The position numbers and the translations under genes are program-made. Shown piece by piece: positions 5,172 to 58,429 of a stretch of DNA of 64,000 bases. Within the stretch, counting starts at the first letter, position 1, and each line of letters starts with the position of its first letter. Below the pieces are notes generated by a model. The model searched no databases and had not been told where the DNA came from. It saw only the letters and a list, made by a program, of their open reading frames with translations. The DNA is from Psilocybe cubensis (taxonomy: Eukaryota), in NCBI GenBank assembly GCA_017499595.2, contig CM039006.1, forward strand, positions 2,914,001 to 2,978,000. Direction: 5' to 3'.

Positions 5172-6868
5172 CTAGCTTTGTCTCGGTAGTGATCCTCGGT
5201 ATACCGGTGTGCGGTCAGAGGTGGCGACATCGCGGAGATGGAAGAGAATTCGACTTGCAAATACCGATGACATCGCAATGGAGAATCCAATAGGGGCTTC
5301 AACAAGACCAATCTGTATCAAGGTTTGTCGGGACTCTACATAATGTTGCCAAATGCCGAATACACTCACAGGTGCATGTGCCCACCACGTCATGCAGAAG
5401 ATGTACGTAGCCGATATGCTAATGAAGGTATGTTGAGGTTAGAAGCACATCTGGTGGGCTTAGAGTGGAGGAATGTACGTACATGAGGAAGTAGAAGACA
5501 GAATCCCGAATTAATACCTGCACCAAGCTCTGACTTCGCGCCATAAATGATCCTGTAGCTCGAAACGTCTTGAAGCTGATATACAGCGCCATTGCGCACA
5601 GAAGAATCTCGTATGAAAGCGCTGGAATCCAGAATCTAAAAAACCTATGGTTTGCGGTCCGAGGGACACAGAAGGTCCCTCCAGGAATTTGAACTGCGCT
5701 TGCTACAAATTTAAGTATCAGAAGATATCCTACAGCTGATATAGGATTCTTCAACTTACTTGGAGGGATATCGGTGGCAATAATCCATGCTCCAATGGAC
5801 GAAGTCAATGTGAATAGAACGGCCATCACGGCAAGGACTACTTTGTTCAGTGAATAAAGCGCGTATATTCGCATTTGCAGAATTACTAGAGTAGTATCTT
5901 TCAGCCTTGAAGAGGAATAGGTATTTTCCAGCTTACTTTGGGTTATCATTACACCTAATAAACCACTCCAAAACTCCCATACGTTGAATCTCCTGCCTGC
6001 AAATTCGTCAGGTTTGCGGTTTGTCCTCGAGAAGATCATCCCTACAACTATTTAGAGGTCAATAAAGCGACATTGATATAAGGAAGATAAACAATCTTAC
6101 AACTAGACAATATAATAGAATTCTTGCAAAAATGTCTTTCATGTTACTAGCAAACTCACTTCATCCGATAGGGTCAAAGTAAAAAATCCTGACAATTTTT
6201 ATTAGTGCTTCCTCAGATCTGCCAATTGAGAACACCCCTACCGTACAACCCAAGACTGTGAAAACATTAATCATCATCCAATACAAAAGTTGGAGTCTGG
6301 TGACAACAAACACGTACATGAATGTCGCCAGGGTATAGTATCGATTCTACAACCAGCTAAGTAAGACAATTGCAAGCATATTATCAGAAACGCACCACAA
6401 GATATACAATTTTGGCAAAACTCCATCTCGCTCCCTGTGAACCATCCGTCAAGCCACACACATTAAAATGGACCATCTTTTCCCTACCCAAATCTGATCG
6501 ACCTGTGGCGGTAATACGAAGGTGTGCCTCGTGTTATTGGAATTGCAGAACAATCTCTCTAAATGACTTACCTCCCTATCAAACGTGATCACTGGGTTGA
6601 TAAATAGTAGTCAAATTTAAGATGCTTAGCACCATTGGTCCACTCACAAAATTCGTAAAAGAATATAGAGTTGGCAGCCACTGGACGGTATGAGTTTGAG
6701 ACGACTTGGATTAGAATCTTCCGGTGGCGGGACATAACAAGCAGGAAGAAACGCACGTCGTGTGTACTGCAGGATCTTTATATCCCGCACAAGTTCCACA
6801 ACAAACTCCGTTGATTCTTGATTTATCGTGACTACATCAAATCCTGGAGTCGTTGCAACTGTTAACAT
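5172..6868 (-). CDS. 7TM GPCR-like membrane protein, DUF6533 family, copy 1 (about 15 exons)
   Basis: Spliced by hand: MLTVATTPGF...IKILQYTR / AANSIFFYEF / ITFDRE / VDQIW / GARWSFAKIVYLV / NRYYTLATF / FCRRFNVWE / ILQMRIYALY / GTFC..FWIPALSYEILLC..LIRDSVFYF / PIGFSIAMSSVFASRILFHLR, stop at 5172. Confidence 0.88.
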
Positions 6869-8509
6869 CGTATGGGCGTGAAAGGATTGGGTGGGGTGAG
6901 AAGGCGTAGACCGGGGCGCCACCCTTGTAGTGACACGCTATATATAATACAACGTCCTCGATAATTCGGTTCTCGGAAGCCAAATGAAGCACTCTTACGA
7001 TAAGAAGCCAAATTTTATGTAGGAGTAAGCGATCTGATCGTTGACACATCCACCGTGTCGTAAAAATTGACTCCGGACAAGTCACGAAATTCTAGCACAA
7101 CGAGTTGTGAAGTCACCTTCCTTGAAAAAAGAATGAATCTTTTCGGCCAGCGTTCTTGCGAAAGAAAAGTTGCTCCAAGGATGCTGCCCAAGACTAGTAT
7201 TAGTGCATCAGTCACTTAAGCTCATGCCAATGTTTATGCTATCCCCGATGTCTATTGCCTGGAGGAATCGTAAAATTTAAGGCCCAGCCTTGGTTTAAGC
7301 ATTCCAGATCTTCAAATATCTATGATAGATCCTCAGAATCAAGGCTCAGAGTACTATCCATCTCTGACTCGCAGAACTGCTAGAACACGAGTGATCCACG
7401 CCGATGGAGCCAGTGGAGTAATATATAAAGGGATGCGCCTATGGTTCCCCAAGCATATGGCGTTCCAACAGAAGGTAGCAGGGGCCAACCTACACAATGT
7501 CTTTGGGCATGTCATTACCCTGAGCATTATGTATTAAACCAGGTTGCAAGCTGAATGTACTCAGCCTGTATGGTACTTCAAGCAATTTCACGACGAAGAT
7601 TTGACTATAAATATATCTTCGAGGACAGGAGATGTCGTTCGGTAAACATAGCATGTGAGTTTGTCTGTATCAAAATAGGTAATGTCCAAGCGATGCCAAC
7701 GGCCCAACGCAATCGTCGAGCCACGAAAGAAACTTGGTGGAACAGGCGGAAATAGAAGCTATGCAATGTGTAGCGGATGTTATAACCGAAGTGGTGTCAA
7801 GTCGGACTCAATGGCACCTTGCCGAGGTAGCGCTCATACTGATCGGTTCTCGGTAATTTTATGAAATCCAGTCGTTGGCGCTTGAGCGCTAATTGTTACT
7901 GGAAGTGCTGTCACCTGTGTTCATGGGCCTAGTGAAAGCCTCAAGGCTCTGGCTAATGACATACCATATCATATGAAAACAAATCGGAGTCAAGGTACAT
8001 GCGACAGACTACTTTTTTGAATCCATTGAAGGCGTGATAACTTAGGCCTGTTAGCTATACAATTTGGAGGTTATGACCAAGTTACGACAGGAATGGCTTC
8101 TACGACTTCCAGAATCCGACATAGTCGGATCATCTATTGTGATTTGTATGCGGTGAATTTTATATGGCGTTCGACAGGCCTCTTTAGCTCATGTATAATT
8201 ACATAAAATAAAAAGTAAAATAGAGAATGTTCCACTTGTATTCTAAGTGTAGACGCTTCGGCCAAGCACGCTCCACTTGATTTATTTATTGTTATTACAT
8301 AATACAGTCGGTATCGATTAGGGGTTAAATCACCTCGTTGTGGTTTTCAATGATCCCGAGGAGCCGTTGGTTCGATTCCAGCTACCGACATCTATCTCTT
8401 TTGCAAAAAGAATTTATATTTTAATCCACTAGGGATCATTTTGTTGACCATTACCAATGCATACAGTGCGATAAAATACATTCAAGTTTAACACATACAG
8501 TATACAGTG

Positions 8510-21602: not shown

Positions 21603-23309
21603 ATGCCGACCATTATGACCATCATGGATACCTCCAGTGTTCTCGAGCAAACCAAAGTTCACGCCATATACATTGCACAGGTCACTAGATACGCTAGGCG
21701 TATGCGGATCCAGTTTCCGTTCTTACTCTCCATTTCGCTCATATACTTGTTTGGTCGCAGTGTCATCTACCTGTATCATTATTTATGATTACTGTGAGTT
21801 AGCCAACGTTTACGAGTAACCATTACTGCAATGGTCTTACCCTTTTATAGTGTTAACCATTGATATAGAGGTACATATCAGTAGTTTCTATGTTTGCGTG
21901 CATTTCAGCTGAGTGTCTGTTGTGCTGACAATGTCAATCTAGCTATCCTTTTTACGGGTAAGCAACATTTCAGTTCGGATCGGGGATGTTGATATTTTCT
22001 AATACTGTAGCGTATCAAAGAAAAATCGATGGAGCTTTGCAAAGGCCCTTTTTCTCTTTGTAAGCACCTCTTTGTTATCCTAGATGCGATGCTTATAGTT
22101 GGACTAGAATCGTTACTACTTCATTGCAGCATGCATGTGTGTCGGAATATCGGCGTACAAGTGACACATTTATAATTAGGTTTCTCTAGATTCACCGTTT
22201 TTGGTAACGCCCTCAAACGTAGCTGGTTATGCTGGCTTTCATTGACCTACCACTCGGTTAGCTTTTTTTTATCCCCATGTAAACGATCAGGTTTGTCCCC
22301 GCACGCTTCAATTCTTTGCAGAGCATTACTCGACCTTCCATGCAGTTGTATGTTATTGTGTCATTATTCTGCGTCCGCAAAACTTCCTGACAATGTACTA
22401 TTATCATACGTAGCTGTGAGTAGTACTCACCTACCTACTTGCCATACACTTGATCTGAGACTTGGTGTTTCCTTATCACAGGCACAGTCTTAATGGAATG
22501 GCAAAGTTGGACAGGAATAATTGGCATTGTTACTACACAAGGTTTGCTAGGCAACTTCTATCATTCATTTAGAGCTGAATAGTTGTCATCACTCCAGCAA
22601 TTCTCCAGCTTCGACTGTATGCGCTGTTTTCACAAAGTCGCAAGCTGTTGATATACATGGTGCCGATATGGATACTGCCCTTGGTGGCGTCTACGGCTGT
22701 GATTTCCAAAGCTCTGGATCAGGTACAAACACGTAAGTTTATACAAATATTTCGAATTTACCCTTGATATCAATTTGGATGTACAGAGGGGAAGATCCAG
22801 GCAGTTGCAATTCCCTACGATTTTTTTTGTTCTATTCTTGACATCCCAACATACCTATACGGGTTCTGGGTCCCCGCCTTTGCTTTTGAATGCGTCCTAT
22901 GTGTTCTGTCAATTATTCAAGGAATTAAAAATTGTCGCTCAACTCAGGCAAGCTTTTTCTCAACCGAAGTGAGGCTAGCCAATGTACTGGTTCACGACTC
23001 CATTGTTTATTTTCTAGCGTATGTTTCCATATATATGCCAATTTTTATGAAGCTCACACCTGTCTACAAAAGGATCGGACTCACATATCTAGCGTGCATG
23101 GTTGTGTTACTACTCAATATTGTGAGTCGCATTGCAAAACATTTCATGCCTAAAAACTGAGGACATTCAAGGAAGTGTTTGATGTACCCCTGGGGTTTTC
23201 GGTTGCCTTTTCCTCTACCTTGTGCAATCGAATGGTATTGAATGTACATCGACTTGCCTCCGATAATCTCAGCTGGAGAAGTTCTAGAGTTTGCCCCTTG
23301 TCGATGTAA
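21603..23309 (+). CDS. 7TM GPCR-like membrane protein, DUF6533 family, copy 4 (15 exons)
   Basis: MPTIMTIMDT...AQVTRYAR / SSTCIIIYDY / LTIDIE / LSFLR / KNRWSFAKALFLF / NRYYFIAAC / FCTVLMEWQ / ILQLRLYALF / DFFC..FWVPAFAFECVLC..LVHDSIVYF / FDVPLGFSVAFSSTLCNRMVLNV; which of the nearby Met codons is the true start is uncertain. Confidence 0.88.
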
Positions 23310-23947: not shown

Positions 23948-25641
23948 ATGACTACTGAGCCGCTTGTACTTCCTCCAGAGTTAATGGATAAGCTAGTCCT
24001 TGGCTTAACCATTGTAGATTTGGTGAGATATACAAGACGTTAGCTGCATAACTCACCTGGAATTGTCTGTTTTGTTAACATTTCAACTAGTTCCATCTAT
24101 CTGCATTCTTATATACGACTACCGTACGCTATGTTTCCTCGTTTATGTATAGATCTATAACGACGACTCAATAGTTATCACTTTTGACGAGGAGGTAAGG
24201 AAATCTCCTTCATATTCAGAGATATCTGACCAAATGGGTAATCAGCTATCATTTCTATGGGTAAATAATGGTTTATCCGACTAGCTCAGTTCATGTTTAC
24301 TCTATCCCCCATGGCTTAGAATAGACGCATCACTCTCGTCAAGGTTTTGTTCTTTTTTGCAAGTTTAATTACCAATCAAGTCAACAACAGTAAATATTGA
24401 GCAGCTAACCAAATGCCACCAGAATCGGTACTACTTTCTTGGCGCTGCCTTGTAAGTCACTGTTTGTATTTTATCTGCAACTATGTATACTCAGTGTGGG
24501 CCTGAATTAGCTTTCAGATTTACGGTAAATTGTCTTGGGATACTGCGATACAAATCCAGTTGTATATTCACCAAATTTTCAGTCTTCTTCTCTCCGAATG
24601 TTGATACCAATGTGAGTCAAGCCATTGATACTCAGAAGGATTCAAAAGTTCTCACAAATCTCTCAGTTGTGAGGCTACCCGTTAGATCCTTTTAGTTGCA
24701 TTGTATGCTAATATCAGGAATACCCCACTGACATTCAGCTGTAAGTACCTACACGGGCATGATGACTTGGGAATATCCCACCAAAGGTTCCATAGGTATA
24801 AAAGCTTCTGACTGGCAAAATTGGTCGGGTGTATTGGGAACATTTCTTGCACAAGGTATGTTCCATTTTCTTGTAAATTAAATAGATTTCTTAGAAGTTT
24901 TATACCAATTTATTAGCCATCTTACTTGTTCGACTCTACGCGCTCTATTCAATGAGCCGAAAGCTCATTCTATATATGCTACCTGTGGGCATAATATCAA
25001 TCCTTGCCTCTATATACGTGATGCAGAGTTCATTTGAACTTCTAGACTCCAGTGAGTTTCCATTTCTTTTGGAAGAATTGATTTATAATTTTAGCTTTTT
25101 TGCATTAAAGGAAATGATATTTTTGCCATTGCTCTACCAGGAGGAAACACTTGCTTTGGACGGAATGTACCCTCATACGTATATGTATTTTGGATACCTT
25201 TGCTTGGGTATGACTGTCTCCTATGTGGATTGGCCATTTGGAGGGGCGTTGTGCATTATAAAATTCGTTTGATGGGAGGTACTCAAACGAAGCGATTGAT
25301 TGATATTCTTGTTCAAGACTCTGTCCTATATTTTGCCATGTGAGTTACAAATTGCGCCTAAGGTTTAAAACCAGCTCAAATAATCTCTGACGCAACCGAA
25401 ACATAGAATCGGACTCACATACCTAGTTTGCATGATTGTTTGGATTATAAACCTGGTAAGGCTTTGATGATGATTAGTTAGTGTATAAGTTGATGGGACA
25501 GATGTACAGAATTACTTCAACGTTCCGTTGGGGTTTTCGGCTGCACTTTCGTCTACTCTATGCAACCGTATGATCCTGAAGGTTTATGGCATGTGCGCGA
25601 GTCAGGTCAAGGAAAATAAAGTGAAAAAAGGACAGGCATAG
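23948..25641 (+). CDS. 7TM GPCR-like membrane protein, DUF6533 family, copy 5
   Basis: MTTEPLVLPPELMDKLVLGLTIVDLVRYTR / PSICILIYDY / ITFDEE / LSFLW / NRYYFLGAA / FCIKASDWQ / ILLVRLYALY / GNTC..FWIPLLGYDCLLC..LVQDSVLYF / FNVPLGFSAALSSTLCNRMILKV, TAG ending at 25641. Confidence 0.87.
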
Positions 25642-32454: not shown

Positions 32455-34159
32455 ATGAGCTATACTTCAGCATCCGTGATTTCACCGCTCTTACAGGAAC
32501 TCTTTCACGGCCTCTTCATCATCGATTTTGCAAAATGCACCCAGCGTACGTGCATCACCCACATCCTCATTAAGCCTATACAGGGTGATCTCTAACGGAG
32601 AATTTTTCAATCTAGTTTCTGCTCTTATGATCGTCCTTTATGACTACGGTAGGCAGCAGCTGAGCCACCCTTTCTATGCTTCCAGTTTGTTGATATGACA
32701 ATTGAAAGCGATTACGTTCGAGCAAGAGGTGAGCACCTTACAGCGCATGACCTTCTTGTAGACCGTTTTATTTACCTGTAACAATATGACAGATGTCGTA
32801 TCTCTGGGTGAGTTTTATGTATACCCCTGAAGCAACCCAACACTCATTACTTGATCATATTCTTCTACATAAGAAAACTCGATTCAATTTCGTGAAGGTT
32901 TTATTCCTCCTGGTATGTCACACCACCCACTGGAGTTCGTCCGACCAGGACTTATCAAGCAAATAGAACCGGTACTACATCCTCATATCAGCAATGTCAG
33001 TCGCATTCTATTCCTATCCTTTGCAAGGGTACTGAATTTGACATAGCTACGCCATTCATAGTAATTTTATATTGCAACATGTTCTCTAGCATACTCTGAT
33101 TACTCGGTTGCAGTACTGTTCTTTTCTGATGTGGACAACAAGGTGCGGAAAATCTTGCAAGACTATCAATATATTGTAGCTCAACTTTTCATTAGTTGTA
33201 CGTCAATTAAAATTTAATTATCACAGAGTTATAATATGTCTACTGAACGCTGCCCAACTCTCCACACTCAGCTGTAAGTGTCGAATCATGCGTAGATCAC
33301 TTTGACGTGACTAATAATTTGAAGGCGTTCACTACATGCTGTGGCAAATCTGGTCAATTATTGTAACATCGACCCTAACACAAGGTGCGTTGCACACTTT
33401 TACCACCTGCCCATGGTGCCTTATTTTCGCGTTTCAGCCATCTTGCAGGCTCGACTATACGGACTGTATTCGAAGAATAAAAAGATACTCGCCATCATGA
33501 TACCTCTTTATGTGTTGTCAATCATCGCAGCAGTAGTGCTTGTGGTTAAATCAACTGGAGAAGTAACTGCTGGTAGGCAACAATTTGATCCAGACATTAT
33601 ATCTCCACCTCTAAATCAACCTCCCTTGCCTTACAGCTCACGAGATCATTGCTTTCCCAATAAACAGGGGGCATTACTGCATTGTAACCAGCATCCCTCG
33701 CTTTTCGCTTGCATATTGGATACCTGGATTTGCCTTCGAATTGCTACTGTGTGCGTTGGCTATCAAGAAAGCATTTGGCCATTTCAAACTCTACGGGTCG
33801 TATTACACCACAGGGGTCAGGATTGTCGATGTTCTTGTTGGAGATTCAATTGTATATTTCCTGGTGTGAGCATTTGAATCTATAAAATAACTGTGATGTG
33901 AACTAACCACCTTCTGATCAAGTATTGCAATGGTTTATGTATCCTGCATTGCAATTTGGATTGCGGACTTGGTGAGCTCTGTTTTCGGATGGGAAATTTG
34001 ATGATGTACTCATATCCCACGCAGGAACGAATTGATACTCCACTAGGCTTTGAGCTAACCATCTCATCTACGCTGTGCAGCCGGATGGTATTCAACATGC
34101 ACGGCGCGCTTGACAAGCGAGATATTAACCAAACAATTGATTCGGATGAGACCGATTAG
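32455..34159 (+). CDS. 7TM GPCR-like membrane protein, DUF6533 family, copy 6
   Basis: MSYTSASVISPLLQELFHGLFIIDFAKCTQ / SALMIVLYDY / ITFEQE / MSYLW / KTRFNFVKVLFLL / NRYYILISA / FCVHYMLWQ / ILQARLYGLY / GHYC..YWIPGFAFELLLC..LVGDSIVYF / ERIDTPLGFELTISSTLCSRMVFNM. Confidence 0.88.
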
Positions 34160-34340
34160 GTTACGTGGGAAGGCATAGAAGTCACTGATGCATTTTCTGT
34201 GAATGTGAGGGATTATCCAAAAGGTCATATTTATTGAAAGTCTACTATACATTACAAGTCCAATGAAATTTAAGATATGTTCTCCGATACCGTCCATGGC
34301 GTAAAATAGGAGCATCATGTAACTGGGCTTGGGCGTGATA

Positions 34341-42649: not shown

Positions 42650-43500
42650 CTCGGTGCGCGGGAGTCAGTACATGCAGGAGTCTGGTCGCAGCGGGAATCG
42701 ATCGCATAGAAGGTATTCCAGGTGCGCCGTTGTCAGCGTTGTGCATACGTACGACATACCTAACACTCAAAGGCGGTGGGATTGGGTGTGACCTGGTGTA
42801 AGGTCTGTCTGAGTCACCAAGACAGAAGCAGAGGTTGCAGTGTACTTACCATTGCATACAGTCTTGCTGTACGGGACACTGCGCATACACTTAATGTCGG
42901 GACAATTCCAACAGCGCAACACATGTGGGGAACCGTAGGAAGCTGGGGAGACATTGTGGAGCAAGCATAAACACGGATGGTGAGTACCCCTTTGCTGGAC
43001 TATCGGATTCTGTGGACAGGGGGCGTTTTTCTCAAGTTTTACGGACCAGGACAGTATGCGTTCCCAACATTTCCTGTCTCTGCTGCAGGCTGCTGGAGTT
43101 CTATCCTGTTTACCTCGGTATTGGCACTACCCACCAACGTCTACCTACCCTACCCAAAGAAGACAAACCACGCAGACGGTTTCTGAATGCGGGAACATAT
43201 TGAAAAGTACGCTCATGACAGCATCTCTTCACAGTTCAAGTTGGCCTACCTTCCGAGAGTACTCCCCCACTGTTGGCATATCACTGCCCAACATTTTGCG
43301 CACTTCAGAAAAGCGAGGATGACGGTGGAATTATGTTTGAGTCTGATATCTACTATGCACGCGGGAAATTTATGCGCGAAAACGCACCTATATCTCTGTT
43401 TTTATCCGCTTTTCTCACTAACCCAACAGCGCGACCTTCCAATTTTCCTCCATCCCATTTCTACCATTCAAGGGAGTACCTGCCCTGCTTTGCTGATGTT
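42650..43500 (-). pseudogene. Possible third, more diverged relic of the unidentified family (copy C)
   Basis: Short translated matches in the same order as in copies A and B (QPAAETGNV ~ SAETKTGNI; HRL*V...QRRTW ~ HAVWM...YQRTW); many stops. Confidence 0.3.
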
Positions 43501-44904: not shown

Positions 44905-46612
44905 CTACTCTTTCAATGTCCACATTGAACCTGAATAACCCTGGTAAAGGCGGATCTCGGCTTTCGTTTCTTGATGGCGCCCCATGGACATTCAATAGGA
45001 GTCTGTTGCAAAGTGTCGACGAGAGAGCCACCGAAAAGCCCATTGGTGCGTCGAACCGCTCCTGTAACTTGAATTAGGCGAATTTTGGTTGCAGTGTTAT
45101 GACTATGCGTACACTATCAACTTTCCACACCGCTATGCAGGCAATGTAAACTGCACCGATTCTGTACATCTTAATCAATATTCTGCGTTACGTGGTGGGA
45201 TGAAGGCCGAAAACGTACGCCACGAAATAAAGAACGGAGTCTCGGACCAGGACATCTACGAGTCGGGTCCCCGGTGACCGGCGGTGGTGAATTTCAAAGT
45301 TTCTATAGCCCCTGAAGACGGCCAATGTGCATAGCAGCCACTCAAAGCACAGGGTTGGGATCCAAAATGTGTATAGGTAGCCCGGTATCTTCTCAATGAC
45401 GCAAAACATCCCACCAGGTATGACCGTGGCTCTAATTGTGCCCCCTGTGACGGTGTATGTGAACGAGGCTCCTCGGTCAGCTTGATGAAAATTCCATACC
45501 TCTTCGTTCTTGTACAATGGCGTTTGTCATGATTGAAACACACCCCACGATAGTGAGGAGGTAGAGGGGTACAATACACGCCAGAAATCTTCTACTCTTT
45601 GAGAAAAGGACGTACAATCGGACCTGCAAGATGGCTAGTTTAACCCAGCCGGGTGGAGTCAGAGAGTCGTACATTTTTGTATCAGTGCTGCATGTCGGCT
45701 TGAGATACCTTGTGAAATAATGATTCCAATAACTCCAGACCAGGCTTGCCATTCCATTAGTCGAATACCTTGTCTTCTGTTAGCCGAACTCATCAAGGAA
45801 GCGATTCCAAGTCACTGCTTACAGCTTTGAAAACAGTGCAAATCATCGCTTAAACTGAGCGTTCTTTACGTGAAATCTTGGAGAACGTACAACTGTATTA
45901 TCGTTGGGCATCAGAAAATCCTTCGCATGCAGGAACAGGAAATAAAATGTTTACCTGATCGTTTATGTTGGAAGTGAAGTATGCTAGATAGATGATTCGA
46001 AAGGTTGGCATAGCATGGAAATGACGTTTGATTGTACTCGCCGTATGCTGAGAATCTACGCCCGTCATATTTAATCCAGCTGATAAAACAGGATAAACGA
46101 AACGACATACACGGACGCTACCAGAAAATAGTATCGACTCTGATACACTGGAGTTAGTTTGCGTCGCAACCCGACGTTGAATACGCACGAGGAAGAACAA
46201 CCCTTTCACGGGTGTAAAATGCATGCGCTAAATTATCACGAGGTTCAAATACAATATTCATGTGCAAGACGGTGAAGATATACCCAAAGAAATGATATCT
46301 GATATTCGAGTCAAGATATTCAGTATGGTTATGTGTTGTCCGCTCAGCCATGTTTACCTCCTGATCAAAAGTCAAAACTAAGAAGAGATGAGCGTACAAT
46401 CCATGAATTCTACTTCAGAGGGTCTCATACTATAATCATACAGAATAATGCAAACAGCCGATACTGTAAAGTACAAACATAAGCAGTGTGTTGTGAGGGA
46501 GCCCATGTCACATACGCCTGGCATAACGGGTTATCTGTATGATTCCAATCTCGTGTATTGTCTTCGTCATGATATCATTGGGGAACGATGAAGGGATCAA
46601 TGTCGTGTTCAT
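44905..46612 (-). CDS. 7TM GPCR-like membrane protein, DUF6533 family, copy 9
   Basis: MNTTLIPSSFPNDIMTKTIHEIGIIQITRYAR / SAVCIILYDY / LTFDQE / ISFLW / SRYYFLVASV / FCIRLMEWQ / ILQVRLYVLF / GMFC..FWIPTLCFEWLLC..LVRDSVLYF / RFDAPMGFSVALSSTLCNRLLLNV, TAG at 44905. Confidence 0.88.
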
Positions 46613-48287
46613 GAAGACACACACAGTAATACTTGGTACAATTTGCAGAAGCGTTGTTATAACCCTGTCGTGTGCATATATTTGTCTCGAATCATCGATT
46701 TGGTGAGTATCCGGCGAGCAGGATACATCGATTATTATCAGCTTGTGAGCTTGGATCGGGGATTAAAACCGGTTCTGAGAGGTTCTTCTCCTTTAACTGC
46801 TCCTATACGGATGAGAAGCATGCCCAATCTTATCATGTATCAAGGTTTATGGTGTAAGAAAGTTATATACACAAGTACAATACACATGAGGGCATACTTT
46901 GCCACAAAGAGCTATTTTATCCTGATCGATTAATCAACACAAATTTCTTCGTGAAAACCTGTCCTGCACGTTCTCCTGATCACTTGCTCACTGAGGTTGA
47001 AGTATTACGCTGTGGCTCTACGAAAGCGGATATTCAAGAATTTGGAAGGTGTATGCTGGGAAGTTGTACTTGTGGCAGCCATCTATCTGAATGAAAGACG
47101 CGGGTTTCATTGCTCTAGAAAAGCTGATTTATTGATGTCCAATCAAGAGAGATTGCAGACGTAAATGTGTCTGTTGAAAATCCGCGCACGGACCACCTAA
47201 TCTTAAATTGGCTTTACATTCTCAGGATCTCTGCCGCAACCGGCGTGCCCGGGAGCAAACAGCCAAATTTGGGTATTCTGATTAAGAATCCCTAAACATG
47301 GCACAGAAAAGCAACAGGTGAAGCCAAAGAATAGGAATGATATGAAATGAGGCGAGATACCCGGGAATTCAAAATTGAAGCTCGAGTGTTGGGACGATGT
47401 GTATATACGCACCACTCCCGAGTTGGCGTCTAGAATAAATTAATACGTCTGCATTAATAGGCTCTTTGGATTTGCATACGTGTGCTGTCGGAGGTCCGTC
47501 AACCTGAAATATGGTTCACTGACAATGTAAATGAACTACCATTGTCCAGTCATGTGTGTGTTGTAAACGCGACCAACATTGGTAGAACTGGTCAAAGATT
47601 CTCTGTATGGCCGTCTCAATGTTGAATTCAGTAATTAGGTTTGGTCGTAAGTCTTGCTCTACGTCGTAGTACAACGCCGCTGAGCACTTGTATTGCTCAA
47701 AACCACTGATCATAGGCTTCTAATGCGGTTGAAACTCGGTGAGAATGGTGATAACTAGACCGAATGAATGATTGATACCGGTGACCGTACTCCATCTGTC
47801 AACTGAAGGGAACGTGAACTAAAATTGACAACAATTTCCCAGATTCTCGGCCTGGTAACTTAGTATATTCCTGAAGAACGTGTGTTATCGTTGTTACTAA
47901 CTTGACACAGATTGATATATAGGGCTATCGACAATGATAGGTATTATGTTTAAACATTTTTTCTATCAAATGGCAGGGCCGAGCATTTAAACACATTAAG
48001 GATCTATTGTAGTGTTATAAATTCCAAAGAAACTAGAGGTTGTGTCTCAACCCATGTCCCGACCTCGATATGCAATGTGTTTTGAGATACTATCATATGA
48101 ATTTCCGTTCCGTCTTATAACTCTAGGAATTCCGTAACTCCTGTGGTTTCTAATGGCACGCACGTTTCTAACTACTGATGTAGAGCATCCGCAGATCAGA
48201 AGATTCCATAATAGTGCTATGCCTTACCATGACGGCTGATGTACAGACAGACCTCCCTACGAATATTTGATCTGTCGGTCGTACACT

Positions 48288-48294
48288 TATATAA
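48288..48294 (+). promoter_or_regulatory. Putative TATA box of receptor copy 10
   Basis: TATATAA about 60 nt upstream of the ATG at 48353. Confidence 0.4.
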
Positions 48295-48352
48295 GGGTCC
48301 AGGGATATGAACCATCCCATTGCAGTGGATTGGAAAGTTTGTCTCCTATACG

Positions 48353-50092
48353 ATGGATGTAACATTCCCCATACCTCCATCTCTTCAGCAGGGCTTTGAA
48401 GAATTAATTAGTGCATGGAAGATAGTTCAGCTGACAAAGTACACCAGATGTAGGTCAGACCTTCCAAAATCAATATTAATCAAGTTCTCACTAGTTTATT
48501 TGTGATCCCAATAGTATCTGCGGTATGCATTCTTTTCTACGACTATGGTAGGGCTTACACATTTTAGTCCCTTAACACACCTGACCGAGTGCCATACATA
48601 ATAAGCCATCACATTTGACCAGGAGGTAAGTTCTCCTGAAAAAATAATCTGCAATACATTGATTGAGACCTCAGATATCCTTTCTGTGGGTAAGCAAAAG
48701 TTGCGAATCATGAATCACCGTCTGCGAGTTCTGATAATGACAATTTTTTCCATAGAGCAGAAATTTTAAGTTTGTCAAGCTTCTCTTTCTCCTGGTAAGG
48801 TCATAAGGAGGCCAACAGGATTGAACCAGATGACTGACCTCAAACAGAACCGATACTATTTCACTGGAGTGGCTCCGTATGTGTCAATGTATTATAATCT
48901 ATCCTATTATGTCAGGCTTACTCTCTGGAAGGTTTACAATTTATGGTATAGGCTATTATTATGCTGATAACTCTCGCTAACACTTTTTTCCTCCTCGAAG
49001 CATATTTTTCTGGAAATATAAATTACAATGTACGTTTGACCCACACGTCAATTGGCTGATATAATAATTTTTCTTAGTTGTAGGCCTTTACTTTGCCCTC
49101 TAAATTATTCATGCGTGTGAATGATAGGCCATGACGTTCGTTAATCTCCAGCTGTAAGCAAAGTTGTTCTTCTTTGTGTAGCTGTGTTTTCTGATAGTCA
49201 TACCTGCGCAGGTGTGCATTTTATTAGCTGGGAATTGTGGACTGGTATTATTGGGATTGTAGTTCCTCAAGGTCAGTCCTTGGACATGCCTTGACGTACT
49301 ATTAGAATCCATGGAAGTGTGGAAAATAGTACTGATCTATGTTTCAGCCATTCTGCAGGTACGGATATATGCACTATATTCACAACGGAAGCAACTATTG
49401 GCATACTTGGTTCCCCTCTGCATGATAACCGGTACTGCTTCGGCCACAATCATAAACATAGCCTTCAACCAGGCAAAGACAGGTGAGTTTTATGTCTAAC
49501 GTTACTGTCATTGAAGTGACACATCTAAATTGAAGATGGCGCTATCAATGCACTTCCGACTCCTGGAGGAATGTTTTGTGTCATTGAGCACGTCCCATCC
49601 TATCTATACACCTTTTGGATCCCGATTCTGTCATTTGAGTGCCTGTTGTGCATTTTGGCGCTGATTCAGGGCGTGGAAAACTATAAAGCATATGGAGATC
49701 AATATAACTTGTGCATGCGATTTCATGGAATACTGGTCCGTGACTCTGTGGCATACTTTCTTGCGTGAGCTACCTTTTCACCTGCCTCCCGAAATCCTAA
49801 CCGTTACGTTTACGCTATAAATTATAGGATTGGTGGAACATACTTAGCATGCATGCTAGTTTGGAAACTTTCCCCAGTAAGATTTCTTTTCTTTGGGCAG
49901 GACATTACGGGCCAATGCTGATGTATGCTTCAGAATCGCTTTGACGCTCCTATGGGATTTACTGTGTCTGTGTCTACCACATTATGCAATCGCTTATTGC
50001 TCAGATTGAATGATATGGCATCAACCTCTGTGGATGGCACAGACATAACCACTATGTATACCAGCACCACAGCTAACTCCGACCTTGAATAA
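48353..50092 (+). CDS. 7TM GPCR-like membrane protein, DUF6533 family, copy 10
   Basis: MDVTFPIPPSLQQGFEELISAWKIVQLTKYTR / SAVCILFYDY / ITFDQE / ISFLW / SRNFKFVKLLFLL / NRYYFTGVA / FCVHFISWE / ILQVRIYALY / GMFC..FWIPILSFECLLC..LVRDSVAYF / RFDAPMGFTVSVSTTLCNRLLLRL, TAA ending at 50092. Confidence 0.88.
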
Positions 50093-51250
50093 TGATAGAA
50101 TCCCTCACTGTATCTCAAAAATAATAGTTTTACAAATTTTAGAGTTGCGCCCTCTGGCAGGGTGTTGATCCTGCTTCCATTTTAACTCATTTTTCAGTAA
50201 CAAGTAAACAAAACCAGGCTTATAGTTTTAATTGTTAAATCGACAACCCTTGGTCGGATTCTGATCAGAATTTTGATGCTGGCAAACATCACCATTAGAG
50301 AATAGTTAATTTTTTTGTCCTTTTTTATCTAATATAAGTCGCGAACTTTGTACCTACAGAAGCGGGTATAAAGGAGGACGTGGAACGCAAGTTTCAAACA
50401 CAAGTCAATTGCGCCCGGTTGGGCGTGGGAAAGGTTTGCGTGCGTGGGAGAAAGACAGTTGCTTCTCAAGGGCAAGAGGGGAGAAGTAGCGGGCACTGAG
50501 AGAGTGGTTTAGGGCTTAACATAGCGCAGGCTGAGCTGAGAGTGAAATAGTCGAGTGTAAGGGGTATTAATTGGTGGATAAAGGTGATGTCCGGTCAATG
50601 CCGCTTGCGGCAAGTCGTGGGAATTGGACTTGGGCACACACGCACACAGCGCGACACCGCTTATTACTGGCATTCATTTCACCATCGCTAGCAGCAAAAC
50701 AGCCCCGCCAGCTTTATACATGCATGGTTGTTAGATATTTTGTACGTGACCCTTTTTACTTCTCTAACCTATAAGCATTGAAAGAGTCTTTGATCAATAC
50801 CTCCATTGCAATTGCAAGGATGTGATCTGCCTTCTGTTACTTGTGCGATAGGCCAAGGAGATACGGAGAGAAAAGGGTAGAGATATTGTTATTAAATCTG
50901 CGGTCCCTAGTGGTTTCTGATGGTTTCTGCTCTCAGTATCATCCAATATTTTCTAGAGGGAGCTAATTAACTAGGATGATGCTTGGGCCATGACATGATT
51001 TCCAATGGTCAATGCTAGGCAACACTTATCACATTAATTGTGGGCCATGGTAAGCTGTATGTAAAAGGTATACTAAGATACTTATCATTCAAAGCGGTCC
51101 ATCCTAGATCCATGCGTCGAAAGCACCTTCCCCTTTTACCAGTGGGACTCCAAATGCCACTGACTCTGACTACATATAAAACCCCAGCTTTGTAGATTAT
51201 AGGTCATTATCATCACTTCTTTCATCCTTCTCTCAGATTTACCTTGTACA

Positions 51251-51606
51251 ATGAGCTCCCTAGGTTCAGATTACGAGCAGTTTTGCCACGTATTGGACTT
51301 GAGTGACCGTTTGTAAGTTTTCGATGTTTGAACTCATTTTTGTACGATCGCAGTTGCTAACAGATTCTTTGTAGCATCTTCAATCCTATTGGGGAATGGA
51401 TGATTAAAGATGGAGTAAACGTCAAAATTGAAGACCCTGAGGAGATTCAGAAGCTCTCGGAAACCCGTGGCTTCCTTTTTCACTTGTTCAACGGGAATAC
51501 AGATCGGGAGCACTATATGAGTGTTCACCGTCGTCGTCTGTGCTTGGTGATGAATCAAACAGCCAGTAGACTCCACGGAGCCCATTTGGAACCTTCACAA
51601 ACATAG
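51251..51606 (+). CDS. Small hypothetical spliced gene (about 98 aa) or gene fragment
   Basis: TATAAA about 75 nt upstream, ATG at 51251 and a canonical gtaagt...gctaac...tag intron give MSSLGSDYEQFCHVLDLSDRFIFNPIGEWMIKDGVNVKIEDPEEIQKLSETRGFLFHLF...; no family recognised. Confidence 0.35.
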
Positions 51607-52634
51607 AATTAGATTTCAGAAAGGAAATTTGTCCTCTTCACTTGCCACCCTGCAGCGGCCGTGTTACATTTTGTGCTTCTTGCATTGCTTCTAGCGCTTC
51701 GGTGTTTCTTTTTAAAATATCATTAATCCTTTGTCTTCCAGATACCCTGAAAACCAGTAACAAGCCCAGGTTGCGCATTTACTTGTTTTCTATAGTGAAT
51801 CTGGTGTTATTCTTTCATGTTTTGCAAATGCGATACCTTTTTATACTGAAAAAGTGATATTAAAACTCCTGGTTCCCCTAAGTTACCATTAATGCATGGC
51901 TGGGAAACCACCCAGGCTGGCAGGTATATATGTACTACTTCAAGGTCTGAAGAAGAGCATAGATCTCTGGCTACAAGCATTATCAGGAAGGTTTCTGAGA
52001 AAAGTCACGATGGAAATAAATGTCACTTGTAGTGCGTCGCCTATCAGGTTAGTAGTGAGTATATTAGAAGCTGTCAAGAGAATGAATCGGTTTAAGACTG
52101 CGCGGCCGCTTCGTATCCAGGTACAGGGAACCGATGGAGGTGTGCAGGATGCGCTAAGTTGGATGTTTAGTGTCAGTTTGGTGGCATCTGAGTGTGATTT
52201 ACAACCGCAAATGAGCAAAGATTAGAGATATAGGCTCCTAATATTCAGAGAGCTACTCCGCAAACATTACTGGATTCATAGCAGATGCTGCTATGAAATA
52301 CCACTTCCACCTCATGGCCTATCTTGTCATCCAGTGGGAAGTTCTGGTTACTTCTTCGCATTTTGGATACCCATACTTAGTTTCGAGGCATTACTTTGTT
52401 CCATGGCAATTATTCGAGGGGTTCGAATTGCCACATCCCGAATTTCTGTCAATAGAAAGGTGGACTCAACATTTTTTGGTGACGGCCAACGAATACTTGG
52501 CAGTCTTGTTCAAGATTCAGTCTTGTATTTTTAGCGTACGTTTGATCCTATTACCTCACTACATGCTAACCAGGCACCTTTAAACTTGGACTATGACTAG
52601 TATTGGGGCCACATACGCGACTACGGTTTTTTTC

Positions 52635-54800
52635 GGGCACCAGGAAATCAGCGTGGTTAGCCCGCGTGCGACCTATTTTTGCGTGCCACGCATAAATGTG
52701 AATCAGCAAATTTGCGTGTCTTTCACAAAACGTTGCGTGCGAAATACTACATGTCGCGTGTACATGATATGTAAATGCGTGCAGCATTGTTGAAGTACCG
52801 TGCTATTTGCGTGCATAATTTCGTATAAGATTCACATGAAGATCCGTGAATATTACGCTATTTCCTGCAAGGAATGTAGTATGCTACGCATCCAGTTGTA
52901 ATAAATAATCAATTGTCCAGCGAATTGTACTCTTTCCACCTGAGCCGCATTGTTAACCATCCCATTGATAGGTCCTTCCAGAGGCTTGTCTTTGATTAAA
53001 TTAGAACGCATGAAGCTGGATTGAACAGATATAACAGTCACTACTCCAACTGTGGAATAAATAACAAAACCCGGGTGCCCCTCCATAAAGCATGTAAATT
53101 CTGAAATAAAAGAGTCTCCTCCAAGGTCTTCACCAAGAGATTTTTGCCATAGATTAAATCTTTCTTTTGCCACCCGATCTGGGTTCAGGTATACGTCGGA
53201 TATTTCTGCAACGAATTCACCAGGCTCAAACCGGGTACACCAACAATGAGTCCCAATGGTCAAGTATTCGGATGTGCTTTGACCAAAGCTTCAAATATGT
53301 CCTTTTGGTCTGAAAGAGCATGAAGAATGCGGCCAGGACGACGATGTTTGTGGACCCCTGTGTTGTAGAAATGGCCACCGCCAGACCGCCTCCAGGTATA
53401 TGACACAACGTTACAAGTTTGTCGTATCAAATAGGAACCACAGAGACAGAATTCCTTCATTTACATAATTATGGATTGTGGGCTGGTCTTTGGACGTATC
53501 AAAATCGTACAGTCCTGTTTATCGCATATGATTGCACCTAGACAGCGCCTTGAAGCGCATTTTCCCTTTCTCCATCTATTTGCATTATCATCCCCGTATC
53601 TGTCACCGCCATTGCTTTATGCGCCCAGTGAATGAGAAGCTTGCCGGTCTTTTCAAAGAAGAAGTCATAAATCAAAGATGAGAAAAGAAGTATGAGGAAA
53701 GAACTGGAGAGTAGAATGATTATTGACCTCGAAAATTGATACCCTTTATATAGGTTGTATGTATTTGTTACTAGATTATATTATGCCTGCTTGTGGAGCC
53801 TAGAGGTAGTGAAACCTGAGGAACAAGGCACATAGATACCAAACAGGAACACAACTACCTACTACAATATACTCATTTAATGAGTTCACTGCCATTGAGT
53901 TTCACTTTTAATTTATTTGAGATCTTTGAAACATTCAATATCAATGCCAAGGTCAAAATTCAATATATCTAATGGTACATTCAGACATGTTTTGCGGTAG
54001 AATAATCCAAAACGCATTATTTCCTACTAGCGTGCAAGCTTAAATTGCTTGCGGGGCCATTGCGTGCAGATCACAACTGTTTGCGTGTCAATTGCACGCA
54101 CTTAATTGGGTCGCGTGCCGTCGCGTGCCATCGCGTTAACGTGGGAAAGTGGGTCGCGTGCTACTTGCGTGGCAAATGCGTGCGATTGAGTGCACCTAGC
54201 GTGCTGTGGTGTCACGCTGGTGGTCGTTCAACAACATAAGTTGCATGTCAAAAAGACAAAATTGTCGTTTTTTCCAAGTTCACCATTTGAACGGATATTA
54301 CCGATCATAAACCTTTGCCGATTTTATTGCCGACTCTTGGTTGCGGAGTCGGAGATTGTTGCAAGGCATGCCGAGGGACACGGCATACCAGACCATCCCT
54401 TGAGTTCATTGTTTGTATGGCCCCTATAACAACAAATTGAAGTTCTACCGTTTCCGAGCCTCAATCACCCACACTGACCGTGTAGTATAGACTTTTAAAG
54501 GCATATATGTTAATTAATTCAAATACAGCATAAACCATGTAATAACCTACATTCTAACTGCTTGATACCCGTAGTGCTGGCCGACATAGTACAAGGGCAT
54601 ACTAACAATACATTAAATAATTATAAATGAACGCTAACGATCACTGTTACATTAAAATCCTATGTGTGACACGGTTGTGACAATGCGTGCAGCACACATC
54701 AATATGCGTGCAGAACATAGTTGTTGCGCAAAAATGCGTGTCACGCAAGCACACGCAAAAACGCACGCACGCGAACAGCCACGCTGATTTCTGTATGCCC
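52635..54800 (-). mobile_element. Defective Mutator-like (MULE) DNA transposon, 2166 bp, 9-bp TSD, carrying a GCM/WRKY-type Zn-finger transposase remnant
   Basis: TIRs gggcaccaggaaatcagcgtggttagcccgcgtgcg and cgcacgcgaacagccacgctgatttctgtatgccc; exact 9-bp direct repeat GTTTTTTTC at 52626-52634 and 54801-54809; GCGTG subterminal repeats; broken ORF at 52853-53460 (CLCG...TC...GVHKHRRP...HP..PLGLIVG.PG...GGDSFISEF...HPGFVI...VISVQSSFM...INGMVNNAA). Confidence 0.88.
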
Positions 54801-54844
54801 GTTTTTTTCTGGCTCGTTCTCCATGTTAGTAAACTGGTTTAGAT

Positions 54845-55609
54845 ATATGACACGATTTTCCGTTGAAAATGCGAAGTGGCTGTCATCTGGGTTTGGTCAG
54901 TACAAAAATAGCAAGTCCAGAACCTTAGTACGTACATTAGTGTTAGGTTTTGTAATGTGCTACTTAGTTCTTAGTGCATACACCCTGAGTCGAACAACAC
55001 ATTGTGGTGTGGTCGTACTGGGGCCTTGCTCTGTACTGACGTATGGAAAAGTTTTCTTAATAGCAATACAGTACTATAGGGCTAACATCAACATAAACCA
55101 AGGTCAATTATCTTTTATACAACCCTCATGATTATTTCCCAGATTCCCTGATATTTTCTCATTTCCAACCTGTCTCGTCTTCTTTGGCTTCATGATGGAA
55201 AATGTAATTGTACCGGAAGCATCCACGGCATGATGGATTTCCCAGCATTATGCTTCGCCGTGCATAGGCCGATAGAAAGTCAGAAGAATAACAGATTTTT
55301 TGGAATAAATAAAAGTTTAATTATCTACTGAAACGGCTGCCGTAGGTATGCACATACTCAGAGGGACCCTCCCTATATCATTATCTACCTGTAAGCCGTA
55401 GATTTTTATCAAAGCCACGACCTGACCACGACCTGACCACGACACAAGTTTAGATTTACCACGGTCTGTGCTAAATTTAACTAAATACCAGGTACCTGGA
55501 TGTTCACACATTCAAAAAGTAAGTACTACAGTATAAGGAAAGGCCGGAATCTAGCCAGTACAATGGTACTTCTAAACGTTCGCTTTTTCAACGGAAAATC
55601 GTGTCATAT
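54845..55609. mobile_element. Non-autonomous TIR element (MITE-like), 765 bp, 5-bp TSD, inside an intron of the pseudogene
   Basis: 31-bp TIRs atatgacacgattttccgttgaaaatgcgaa and ttcgctttttcaacggaaaatcgtgtcatat (1 mismatch), flanked by direct repeat TAGAT at 54840-54844 and 55610-55614; removing it restores a normal-length intron. Confidence 0.85.
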
Positions 55610-56665
55610 TAGATGCTACTGATTTTTCCGGACCTTGATGGCTAATGCTTTTAATCGTAGTCTATACTAGACGAAGTGCCTCCAGGATTTTGCATTGCAC
55701 TACCATGTGTGGTCTCAAATCGTCTAGTTCTAAACATGTGTAGAGTAGCATTTCATGAATCAGCAAAAGGGCCAGTAGGGGAAGAAGTGACGAGGAACCC
55801 CGTCAGTGTATACCTGTACAGTTTTTTATCTCTATCGGAGGGCCGGGTATCTCGCAGGGACATAATATCCCGTCGTTAGATACAACGATCGATGAAACAA
55901 GGTTCGTGACTCGGTACTTGTCCATTACATACCAGCTAACCCATTTTCTCTCATTGACAGCAAAAGTCAGAGCAGGAAATACGTGCCTCCGTTCATTCAT
56001 ACTATACTTTACTTTCTAAAAATGAAGCCTTGGGTTTGTTAAAATATATATCTGGCTCACCGTCTTCCAACGATTCTGTGATATATGACTACAAGAAATC
56101 AATGATATTGTTCTTTCAAGTGAATTGGTCACGCGAATCAGCCATGATCATTCGGAACTTGGAACTTAGTTACCTCTGGATGAGGGGCGCAGTTTGCAGG
56201 GTTATCGAGGCAGTTTTCCCAAAGTAAAGACATCTGCTGTTTCTGATATCTCTTTGTACACGAATCAGAAATCAGGATGCGTATATCAACCCAAGAATCA
56301 AGCGCAGTATAGAATGCATGGTGAAGTGAGGTGGTGTCTGCGAGACACGTGGACGTAGCTGCATGTTGCGACGGCTAAAATAAATACGCAGATTAGGATA
56401 TCTTGAACAACATACCTACGTTAAAATATACCGGATGTGGCGGTATTGTGTGAAGGACTTGATGAAAATTGCCTACATCAGATCTTAACCATGTACTGTG
56501 CTATCCGCAGTGGGAGTCAAGGTAATTAGTAGAGCAGTACGCCAACCTATTAATAATGAAGTGGTCTCCTGCCAATGGCCACCTGAAGATTGTGATTTCC
56601 CACCCGTTGACGTGTCGAGGTTTCAGTGTGTTTCAGATAGAAGTGTTAATTAAAGCCTCAACAAG

Positions 56666-56674
56666 TATATAAAA
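56666..56674 (+). promoter_or_regulatory. Putative TATA box of receptor copy 12
   Basis: TATATAAAA about 80 nt upstream of the ATG at 56754. Confidence 0.4.
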
Positions 56675-56753
56675 CTATTTGCCTAGTGCTAGTGCTTTTT
56701 TGGCAGGCGCATAACAGCGAATCCTTGTTCACACACCCAGTGACATCCTGCCA

Positions 56754-58429
56754 ATGTATTCATTGTGGAGCGTGTTCTGGGACATCAGAACCACTCGTTA
56801 CTGCTACTGTGGGTGATATTTCTGTTAATTTTTGACTGAAGAGCCCAGCTTCTCATGATTTTAAACCTTTCAGTGTCTGCGACGTGTATGATTCTCTTTG
56901 ATCATTGTCCGTTTTCTATTTGTTACAATTTTCACTGGAAGTCTCATGAGTATAACGATTACAGTAATTACACTGGATCAAGAGGTAAATTTCCCACCTT
57001 GAACTTTTAGCAAAGCTTATACTTTATACAGGTCGAACTAATATGGGTACGTTCATCACGACTTCACTTGCAGCGAAACTGAACGAATCTTTGACAGATG
57101 GGTGCTTGGTCAATGGGAAAGATATTATTTCTAGCTGTAGGTACAGACATGCCGCTAGTGAAATAGCTGATCGAGTTATTTTTTTTGGTAGAATCGATAC
57201 TATGTGCTCGCCTCTGTTATGTGTGTATAATCGATATACGGTACCATTTTTTCGTATGATGCTCACCGATATGCTGTAACCAGATTCAATGCCTACGGTA
57301 ATAACATTTGCGACTACTATGAGTATAAATCTCACGCCGTAATTCCGAAGTGATGTACTTTTCGATGTTCAATGACATAGTAAGTTGGTCTTCGGATTCA
57401 TTAGTCAATCTCTTGCTGAATATTTGAAAAGAGCTGTGAGTTTGTAGCTACATGTCCTCAGATTCTGGCATGGAGCGCACCTAATGTCAATACAGGCTTG
57501 AGTTTTATTCGTTGGCAGGGGTGGACATGCTTAGCGGTTAGTATGATGGCTGAAGGTACCAGTTATGCGACGCATATTCCATTTCTGCCTTGCTTATCCT
57601 GTTGTAGGAATACTCCAGATCAGGATTTTCGCGCTTTATCTGTTGAACAAGCGTGTAATAATCACCGTACTGACATTGTTTGCGTTATCGTCCGCCCTTT
57701 CCGCTATAGTAATGGGATACGTACTGAGTATATTAGAAGGTCAGAATTCTTCATCCCCAATTGCTGGCGTTCAATCTCATGTTTTTGTCAACAGCAACCG
57801 AGTTTAATGACCCTGGAGGGGTTTTCTGCATAACGAAAAGGAGACAGAATCCTTTCTATGTCTTTTGGATACCAACTATCTGTTTTGAAGTTCTTCTTTT
57901 TACACTAGCATTGTTCCGGTCGATAACCTTATCGAAATCTATCGAACTCGGGGAAGGAGAAACGACGGTGTTTAGAAGTGGTCAACGCATGGTGATTATT
58001 CTTTTCCGTGACTCTCTCATATATTTCTTAGCGTGAGCATCTCAACCTACGTTGTTTTATCCACATAAACATACACTAATGATTTGCATCTCATTTTCAG
58101 AATTGGAGCGATTTATTTGACCGCAATGATCTTCTGGATGGTAGCTCGTGTCAGTGAGATGCCAGAGATTCCATCAGATCCTCGGTGAAGAATAAGTGTG
58201 CTAATACCTGATTTTATAGCCCGAGTTAGGTCAAGTTCCTTTGGGATTTTGCGCGGCCTTTCCAAGTGTATTAGCCAACCGCCTTGTTTTGAACATTCGC
58301 AGTATCCTTTCACACAGCGTTACACAGACGTCATCTCCACCAGAGCTCACAGAAAACCCTCTCAGCGGATCCGGGTACCACTTCCGCACGTATCACGAAG
58401 ACACCAGGAACTTTGAAAGCATGCTTTGA
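56754..58429 (+). CDS. 7TM GPCR-like membrane protein, DUF6533 family, copy 12 (about 14 exons)
   Basis: MYSLWSVFWDIRTTRYCY / SATCMILFDH / ITLDQE / VELIW / MGAWSMGKILFLA / NRYYVLASV / SCLSFIRWQGW / ILQIRIFALY / GVFC..FWIPTICFEVLLF..LFRDSLIYF / QVPLGFCAAFPSVLANRLVLNIR. Confidence 0.88.

Follow-up and report, generated by a model that had tools for sequence, protein, structure and literature searches.

A 64,000-nucleotide (nt) stretch of the Psilocybe cubensis genome (contig CM039006.1 of assembly GCA_017499595.2; hereafter, the window) carries a 53-kb tandem array of genes for seven-transmembrane (7TM) proteins of the DUF6533 family, 11 of them intact and one dead. This confirms the original prediction, made from the letters of the window, that 11 intact paralogs and a pseudogene lie in mixed orientation between positions 5172 and 58429. 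Most fungal 7TM proteins are orphans, and mushroom-forming fungi have few classical G-protein-coupled receptors (GPCRs) but hundreds of DUF6533 and DUF6534 genes. We postulate that the 11 proteins sit in the plasma membrane as GPCR-type receptors, whose diverged outer parts would bind ligands and whose conserved core would switch a G-alpha subunit, and we give this reading a probability of roughly 55%.

Searching the window by tblastn with a database homolog (P0002) returned 13 family pieces, which resolve to 11 complete ATG-to-stop genes and one decayed gene that lies in two places. No more family remnants were detected in the window outside these 12 loci (tblastn, E < 0.05). The intact genes follow one another on strands - - + + + + - - - + +, with the pseudogene (+) between the genes labeled L10 and L13 below, and their products are 280 to 308 amino acids (aa) long. 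The G+C content of the window is about 43%, and short introns are many, as in mushroom-forming fungi.

5172..6868, minus strand: L1, intact, 296 aa, 15 exons; profile score 315.6 bits
8510..10170, minus strand: L2, intact, 292 aa, 15 exons; sister of L1 and the copy that has diverged furthest; profile score 219.3 bits
19061..20703, plus strand: L3, intact, 289 aa, 15 exons; one GC donor
21624..23309, plus strand: L4, intact, 290 aa, 15 exons
23984..25641, plus strand: L5, intact, 280 aa, 15 exons; one GC donor
32455..34159, plus strand: L6, intact, 293 aa, 15 exons; public protein P0129
34341..36042, minus strand: L7, intact, 294 aa, 15 exons; public protein P0126
37439..39095, minus strand: L8, intact, 287 aa, 15 exons; one GC donor; 62% identical to L7
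44888..46570, minus strand: L9, intact, 293 aa, 15 exons; one GC donor
48353..50092, plus strand: L10, intact, 303 aa, 15 exons
56754..58429, plus strand: L13, intact, 308 aa, 14 exons; 4-nt micro-exon AGCT; nearest to the widely conserved ortholog group

The gene models were derived from homology and splice signals rather than from RNA. They were built with a purpose-written protein-to-DNA spliced aligner that scores splice sites, with weights trained on 78 introns agreed on by most alignments (median length, 55 nt), and each locus was aligned with relatives from the database as well as with the other loci. The 153 introns measure 47 to 79 nt and all end in AG; 149 have GT donors and 4 have GC donors. 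There are 14 introns per gene (13 in L13), and 13 intron positions are common to all 11 genes, in agreement with the earlier observation that the paralogs have the same intron positions. Exons E2 to E11 have identical lengths in 10 genes (33, 20, 15, 39, 29, 14, 29, 2, 2, and 60 nt), while L13 has a single 4-nt exon in place of the two smallest (33, 20, 15, 39, 29, 14, 29, 4, and 60 nt), which leaves it with 14 exons against 15 in the ten others. Pairwise protein identity among the 11 ranges from 26 to 62%, and the earlier description of the products as strongly diverged holds.

Ten of the 11 genes appear to need two conserved micro-exons of 2 nt (TT, then CT or TT) that public gene models miss. 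Each micro-exon has good splice sites. Four of the pairs are listed here with the 4-nt counterpart in L13; L2 and L5 to L9 have equivalent pairs.

6101-6102 and 6046-6047, minus strand: 2-nt micro-exons of L1
19768-19769 and 19822-19823, plus strand: 2-nt micro-exons of L3
22346-22347 and 22414-22415, plus strand: 2-nt micro-exons of L4
49078-49079 and 49152-49153, plus strand: 2-nt micro-exons of L10
57432-57435, plus strand: 4-nt micro-exon AGCT of L13

What looks in the ten genes like an intron of 110 to 190 nt before exon 9 is made up of three introns of about 55 nt and the two 2-nt exons, in the pattern YAG^TT^GT..., an acceptor AG, and then (C/T)T^GT.... The string AGTTGT is present in 10 of 10 such gaps, whereas the remaining introns of these genes, 6,928 nt in total, contain it twice. 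When it scored splice sites, the aligner recovered the micro-exons unaided in four genes, and it recovered them in all genes when paralogs were the queries. Models of 9 to 13 exons made without splice-site scoring had weak donors before exon 9 in every gene. A long-read study of Coprinopsis reported 57 exons of 2 nt across 50 genes (PMC12230235); such exons are therefore known in this group.

Together with the next exon, the micro-exons encode Phe-Cys, the latter being the invariant Cys before helix 3, and the AGCT micro-exon of L13 gives Ser-Cys. Only 13 residues, in the E7-to-E10 region (32996-33324), separate our model of L6 from P0129, a public protein of P. cubensis, and our model of L7 equals the public protein P0126 except for read-through insertions in the same region (35244-35536). 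The two public proteins depart from the new models, and from each other, exactly at the micro-exons. A third public P. cubensis protein, P0174, is 100% identical to the C-terminal 158 aa of L1 and covers the C-terminal half only. Among 46 aligned database relatives, the Cys in the second extracellular loop (ECL2) occurs in 46 of 46 and the helix 3 Cys in 30 of 46, with Ser instead in 8. If the micro-exon of L13 is left out, Ser-Cys becomes Val-Ser. Because the ECL2 Cys is universal and skipping the micro-exon of L13 loses the other Cys, we suspect that many of the helix 3 Cys residues that seem to be missing from database relatives are annotation errors. The errors in public models fall where the conserved Cys before helix 3 can be lost.

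Membership in the DUF6533 family was established at several levels. The public proteins P0129 and P0126, whose residues 1 to 76 are identical to our L6 and L7 models, score 58 and 57.1 bits, respectively, against Pfam PF20151 (gathering score, 24.1 bits). All 11 proteins score 219 to 322 bits against a profile of 46 DUF6533 proteins and 35.7 to 79.2 bits against the DUF6533 segment of that profile alone. A search with P0002 returned 204 proteins, nearly all of them with annotations as Agaricomycetes DUF6533 proteins, and a profile of the largest exon from eight paralogs matched 792 of 1.84 billion representatives at E ≤ 1e-3 and 4 at E ≤ 1e-30; its top matches include P0129, P0126, and P0174. 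The 11 proteins are 30 to 50% identical to three conserved relatives. Eight of the genes, L3 to L10, form a clade (see below) that is 30 to 39% identical to a widely conserved ortholog group (P0047, P0005, and P0087), and L13 is 48% identical to P0047 and sister to a Psilocybe cyanescens protein, P0191. In length, in their seven helices, and in all of their motifs, the window proteins agree with the 46 aligned relatives from this family of Basidiomycota.

Two database proteins, P0122 (679 aa) and P0123 (360 aa), were each matched twice by a profile of exon 13. They look like neighboring DUF6533 genes fused by annotation, which would mean that tandem pairs exist in other genomes too.

Mean hydropathy delimits seven hydrophobic segments in these proteins. 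With loop limits taken from the helices of an AlphaFold model, the net charges are +1.6, +1.5, and +0.7 in intracellular loops (ICLs) 1, 2, and 3 and -1.2, -0.9, and -1.1 in the N terminus, ECL1, and ECL3, respectively. By the positive-inside rule, these charges fit an outside N terminus, and the predicted topology is thus 7TM with the N terminus outside and the C terminus inside, as had been proposed. N-glycosylation sequons (2 in 690 outer-loop residues versus 4 in 467 inner-loop residues) are uninformative for topology.

Twenty-three alignment columns are invariant, including, in the numbering of P0047, E43, K56, R63-Y64-Y65, C87, W93, I108-L109, R112, C162, W175, P177, D217-S218, Y221-F222, and R261. 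R112 and D217-S218 are invariant not only in the 11 genes but also in 46 of 46 database relatives. Of the two invariant Cys residues, one is at the top of helix 3 and the other in outer loop 2; both positions are predicted to be on the outer side of the membrane, not on opposite faces, and a disulfide tethering ECL2 to transmembrane helix 3 (TM3) is predicted. The motifs named in the original prediction were counted among the 11 proteins. Motifs of the types [ILV][TN]x[DE]xE, [FS]C before helix 3, and W[IV]P occur in 11 of 11 proteins; NRYY occurs in 9; Gx[FY]C in 8 (its Cys in 11); [ILV]LQxRx[YF]AL in 7; RDSxxYF in 6 (xDSxxYF in 11); and [SN]RxxxN in 6.

Two proteins, P0047 (a relative from Hebeloma) and P0129 (the public protein of L6), were folded with AlphaFold2. 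The model of P0047, from a 46-row alignment, has a predicted local distance difference test score (pLDDT) of 81.8 and a predicted template modeling score (pTM) of 0.73; that of P0129, from a 40-row alignment, has a pLDDT of 87.1 and a pTM of 0.80. Both models consist of seven long helices and a beta-hairpin in ECL2. In a VIA-align structure search that covered 48,161 chains of solved structures, both models matched best the class D GPCR Ste2, a fungal pheromone receptor (PDB 7AD3; 7ad3_B), with a Z score of 17.1, a root mean square deviation (rmsd) of 4.0, and 256 aligned residues for P0047 and a Z score of 19.5, an rmsd of 5.5, and 265 aligned residues for P0129. Ste2 stood 1 to 2.6 Z units above the next row, and the matches that followed were the bitter-taste receptor TAS2R14 (Z, 15.1 to 16.9; second best for P0129, at 16.9), designed GPCR folds, and class C domains (Z, 13.4 to 15.5). 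The expectation that the structures would match GPCRs rather than channels or enzymes was thus borne out. Although 256 to 265 of 298 residues align with Ste2, identity over the structural alignment is 9 to 10%, and the likeness is one of structure alone. According to a published account, class 1 STE2-like receptors occur only in Ascomycota (PMC12842992).

The same account proposes DUF6534 (PF20152) as a new class of fungal GPCRs on the basis of machine learning and co-folding (PMC12842992). Like the window genes, DUF6534 genes encode 7TM proteins of Agaricomycotina, but they form a separate Pfam family; in the ESM Atlas, P0129 adjoins both a DUF6533 cluster (TM-score, 0.84) and a DUF6534 cluster (TM-score, 0.72). 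None of the six database relatives that we scanned against Pfam matched DUF6534 at E ≤ 1.

Conservation across the membrane was expected to show variable outer and conserved inner parts. In the helices this pattern is modestly present: mean identity is 0.37 in outer halves and 0.47 in inner halves (p = 0.018), with values of 0.18 to 0.35 in the outer halves of helices 2 to 4 and 0.50 to 0.66 in the inner halves of helices 1, 2, 3, and 6. Helices 5 and 7 show the opposite trend.

We propose that the outer halves of TM2 to TM4 and the outer loops would form ligand sites that differ among the paralogs, and that the ligands, extracellular peptides or small molecules, would differ accordingly. The ECL2 hairpin would be tied to helix 3 through the two invariant Cys residues. 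The inner core is invariant and comprises the E of TM1, the K and the RYY of TM2, the IL..R where TM3 ends on the inner side, the DS..YF of TM6, and the R of TM7. By analogy with a receptor of Ustilago maydis, the TM3-Arg/TM6-Asp core could act as the activation switch toward G-alpha. That receptor, Gpe1 (UMAG_01374, formerly Pit1), is activated by a Pit2-derived peptide via yeast Gpa1 (PMC13652807, 2026). It has a predicted TM3-ECL2 disulfide, and either R133A in TM3 or N246L plus N247L in TM6 abolishes activation (PMC13652807). A Foldseek search from the Gpe1 model found many basidiomycete proteins, many of them DUF6533, the closest with a TM-score of 0.8 (PMC13652807).

As described, Gpe1 shares with the window proteins seven helices, a short outer N terminus, a predicted TM3-ECL2 disulfide, and a basic residue at the inner end of TM3 that would face polar residues in TM6. 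They differ in that Gpe1 has 435 aa, a 120-aa tail, and NN in TM6, whereas the window genes have DS and other members have DG (PMC13652807). The gene for the Gpe1 ligand, pit2, neighbors gpe1, whereas a tblastx comparison of the window with itself, in which the paralogs were masked, revealed no gene family that had duplicated along with them.

Several observations weigh against GPCR-type receptors. The six database relatives scanned gave no match to any GPCR family of Pfam at E ≤ 1, 7tm_1 and STE2 included. As regards the class A rhodopsin family, helix 7 lacks NPxxY and follows the pattern xx[SN]Rxxxx. The profile of 46 relatives matched none of the solved PDB chains at E ≤ 10. Foldseek support is weak: all matches listed for P0047 are GPCRs, the best with an E value of 6.5e-4, P0129 has no match at E ≤ 0.001, and TM-scores are 0.3 to 0.5. 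The VIA-align lists also include 7TM folds that are not GPCRs, namely, microbial rhodopsins (Z, 11.6 to 14), TMEM87A (Z, 12.7 to 13.9), and adiponectin receptor 2 (Z, 11.6 to 13.0). The evidence for a GPCR-like fold therefore seems generic, since other 7TM folds score too, and a predicted fold alone is no proof of G-protein signaling. The folded proteins, moreover, were stand-ins for the spliced models. In the loops, the expected contrast between outside and inside failed, with an identity of 0.25 in outer and 0.20 in inner loops, so that the outer loops are not more variable. Finally, Gpe1 is only a structural relative of the DUF6533 family.

The main alternative hypothesis is that the array encodes 7TM proteins that act without G-protein signaling, in development, membrane organization, trafficking, or transport, as may hold for SNB1 (snowball) of Coprinopsis cinerea. 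SNB1 is a 7TM protein with a DUF6533 domain that is needed for fruiting-body patterning (PMC10949477). Like the window proteins, it has seven predicted helices, the N terminus outside, and the C terminus inside; it differs in having long disordered loops and in belonging to a family with 1 to 5 copies per species and no reported major expansion (PMC10949477). Its authors place it outside the GPCR classification (PMC10949477), which speaks for this alternative and against receptors of the GPCR kind, as do the matches of our models to TMEM87A and adiponectin receptor 2 and the lack of a GPCR Pfam family among the six relatives. On the other side, the top structural matches of both models are true GPCRs, the invariant Arg in TM3 and Asp in TM6 are of the same type as the switch in Gpe1 (PMC13652807), and ligand-binding GPCRs typically combine an ECL2 hairpin with a pair of outer Cys residues. 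We regard this alternative as possible, if rather unlikely. The statement in the original prediction that DUF6533 proteins have no known function is outdated, given snb1 (PMC10949477) and Gpe1 (PMC13652807).

The scores of microbial rhodopsins and adiponectin receptor 2 against our models could also be taken to mean that the proteins are retinal-binding, rhodopsin-like proteins or 7TM hydrolases of the PAQR type. This is very improbable: helix 7 has no conserved Lys for retinal binding, its sole invariant charged residue being Arg, the His/Asp cluster of the PAQR metal site is absent from the 23 invariant columns, and none of the six relatives matched Bac_rhodopsin or HlyIII in Pfam at E ≤ 1.

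The history of the array was examined with a tree that included 43 database proteins. L3 to L10 form one clade with a support of 100 in the SH-like approximate likelihood ratio test (SH-aLRT), L1 and L2 are sisters (98), and L13 pairs with a database protein (99). When shorter database fragments were added, seven fell inside the eight-gene clade (support, 99), four of them from P. cyanescens and three of unidentified source. The clade looks lineage limited and, given the P. cyanescens fragments inside it, older than P. cubensis and P. cyanescens. The proportion of synonymous differences (pS) is 0.78 to 0.85, and thus saturated, in all 10 pairs tested, the closest pair (L7 and L8) included, which means that the duplicates are old and that there was no recent birth. 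In the same pairs, the proportion of nonsynonymous differences (pN) is 0.23 to 0.44, far below the saturated pS, and the genes are therefore under selection. The duplicates are old and have been kept by long-term purifying selection. A comparison of the ratio of nonsynonymous to synonymous rates (dN/dS) by region was dropped because pS is saturated in all 10 pairs.

That the array could be a decaying, functionless remnant of old duplications is hardly credible: 1 of the 12 copies is dead, with two transposons inside it, and the region 39000-58900 yielded no contig of the spliced paralog form in two runs guessed to be RNA (X4 and X5, whose contigs there lie only at 42388-45339, 52635-52664, and 54670-54955), but 11 complete reading frames, with 14 intact introns each (13 in L13), persist despite saturated synonymous sites, pN is well below a pS of about 0.8, and 23 columns are invariant.

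The GPCR-like part of the original interpretation is supported, its claim of a birth-and-death repertoire only partly. Twelve tandem loci in 53 kb, an apparently lineage-limited clade, and a dead gene are marks of such a process; against it, there are no young duplicates, and only 1 of 12 loci is a pseudogene. Animal chemoreceptor clusters (olfactory receptors, TAS2R, and the chemosensory GPCRs [csGPCRs] of nematodes) resemble the array in tandem arrangement, mixed orientation, divergence, a clade of their own, and a pseudogene. The window genes differ from them in having no young duplicates, one pseudogene in 12, 13 or 14 introns, and outer loops that are not more variable.

We speculate, with considerable doubt, that the DUF6533 superfamily may be a tandem-arrayed chemosensory GPCR repertoire of mushroom-forming fungi, in which the eight-gene clade would be tuned to niche-specific or self-made peptides or small molecules. 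Phlebia radiata has 187 DUF6533 genes (PMC13563720). Earlier publications already cover both the expansion of the family and its interpretation as GPCR-like; our literature search found no description of this array or of tandem DUF6533 arrays as a chemoreceptor-like repertoire.

The dead gene and two inserts within it are laid out as follows.

~51800..55840, plus strand: pseudogene; frameshifts in the E12 region, 5' exons unrecognizable
52310-52531, plus strand: E13-like piece of the pseudogene
52601 to a cut at ~52634, plus strand: start of E14
55671-55840, plus strand: last exon
52634..54801, no strand: 2.17-kb transposon-like insert that interrupts exon 14; inverted ends of 23 nt (imperfect), with TGCGTG repeats in subterminal position
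54845..55609, no strand: insert of 765 bp, like a miniature inverted-repeat transposable element (MITE), in the last intron of the pseudogene; 31-nt inverted ends

When both inserts were removed in a script, E13, E14, and E15 came to 226, 49, and 180 nt, with E14 at its canonical 49 nt. In DNA sequencing runs, the 2.17-kb insert is covered at 8 to 28 times the baseline depth, and the MITE-like insert also has a high depth. A contig from one DNA run (X2) joins 52625 to 54801, and the 2.17-kb insert is therefore missing there.

Among 27 stop-to-stop open reading frame (ORF) translations compared with Pfam, only four matched; the exons of the paralogs are too short to give a Pfam match in such a single-ORF scan.

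786-1232, minus strand: SnoaL_2 ORF
40575-41756, plus strand: HAD hydrolase ORF
60186-61085, plus strand: DUF6699 ORF
61723-62166, plus strand: ORF with an epimerase-type fold

Between L5 and L6, pieces of a gene on the minus strand at about 27.2 to 29.3 kb read like a cytochrome P450: an N-terminal anchor precedes PPGP at 29285, and another ORF occupies 28281-28799. As single ORFs, these pieces had no Pfam match. Seven ORFs in the gaps came up in a rough scan for signal peptides, none of them convincing and one of them the P450 N terminus. The masked tblastx self-comparison found only an unrelated two-copy stretch, also between L5 and L6, at 26000-26610 and 30279-30860 (+), with 73% DNA identity over about 150 nt and no Pfam match in the ORFs tested. 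In the RNA-like contigs, a transcript of the plus strand spans 43932-45339 and has had introns spliced out at 44348-44399 and at about 45045-45093. It runs antisense across the last three exons of L9, and its tested ORFs had no Pfam match.

The array is a well-preserved example of a known family that has recently been linked to GPCRs, not a new kind of system. Its 11 diverged but maintained paralogs are a ready panel for a yeast reporter assay of the type used for Gpe1. The corrected models matter for such an assay, as at least three of the genes have wrong or partial public models.

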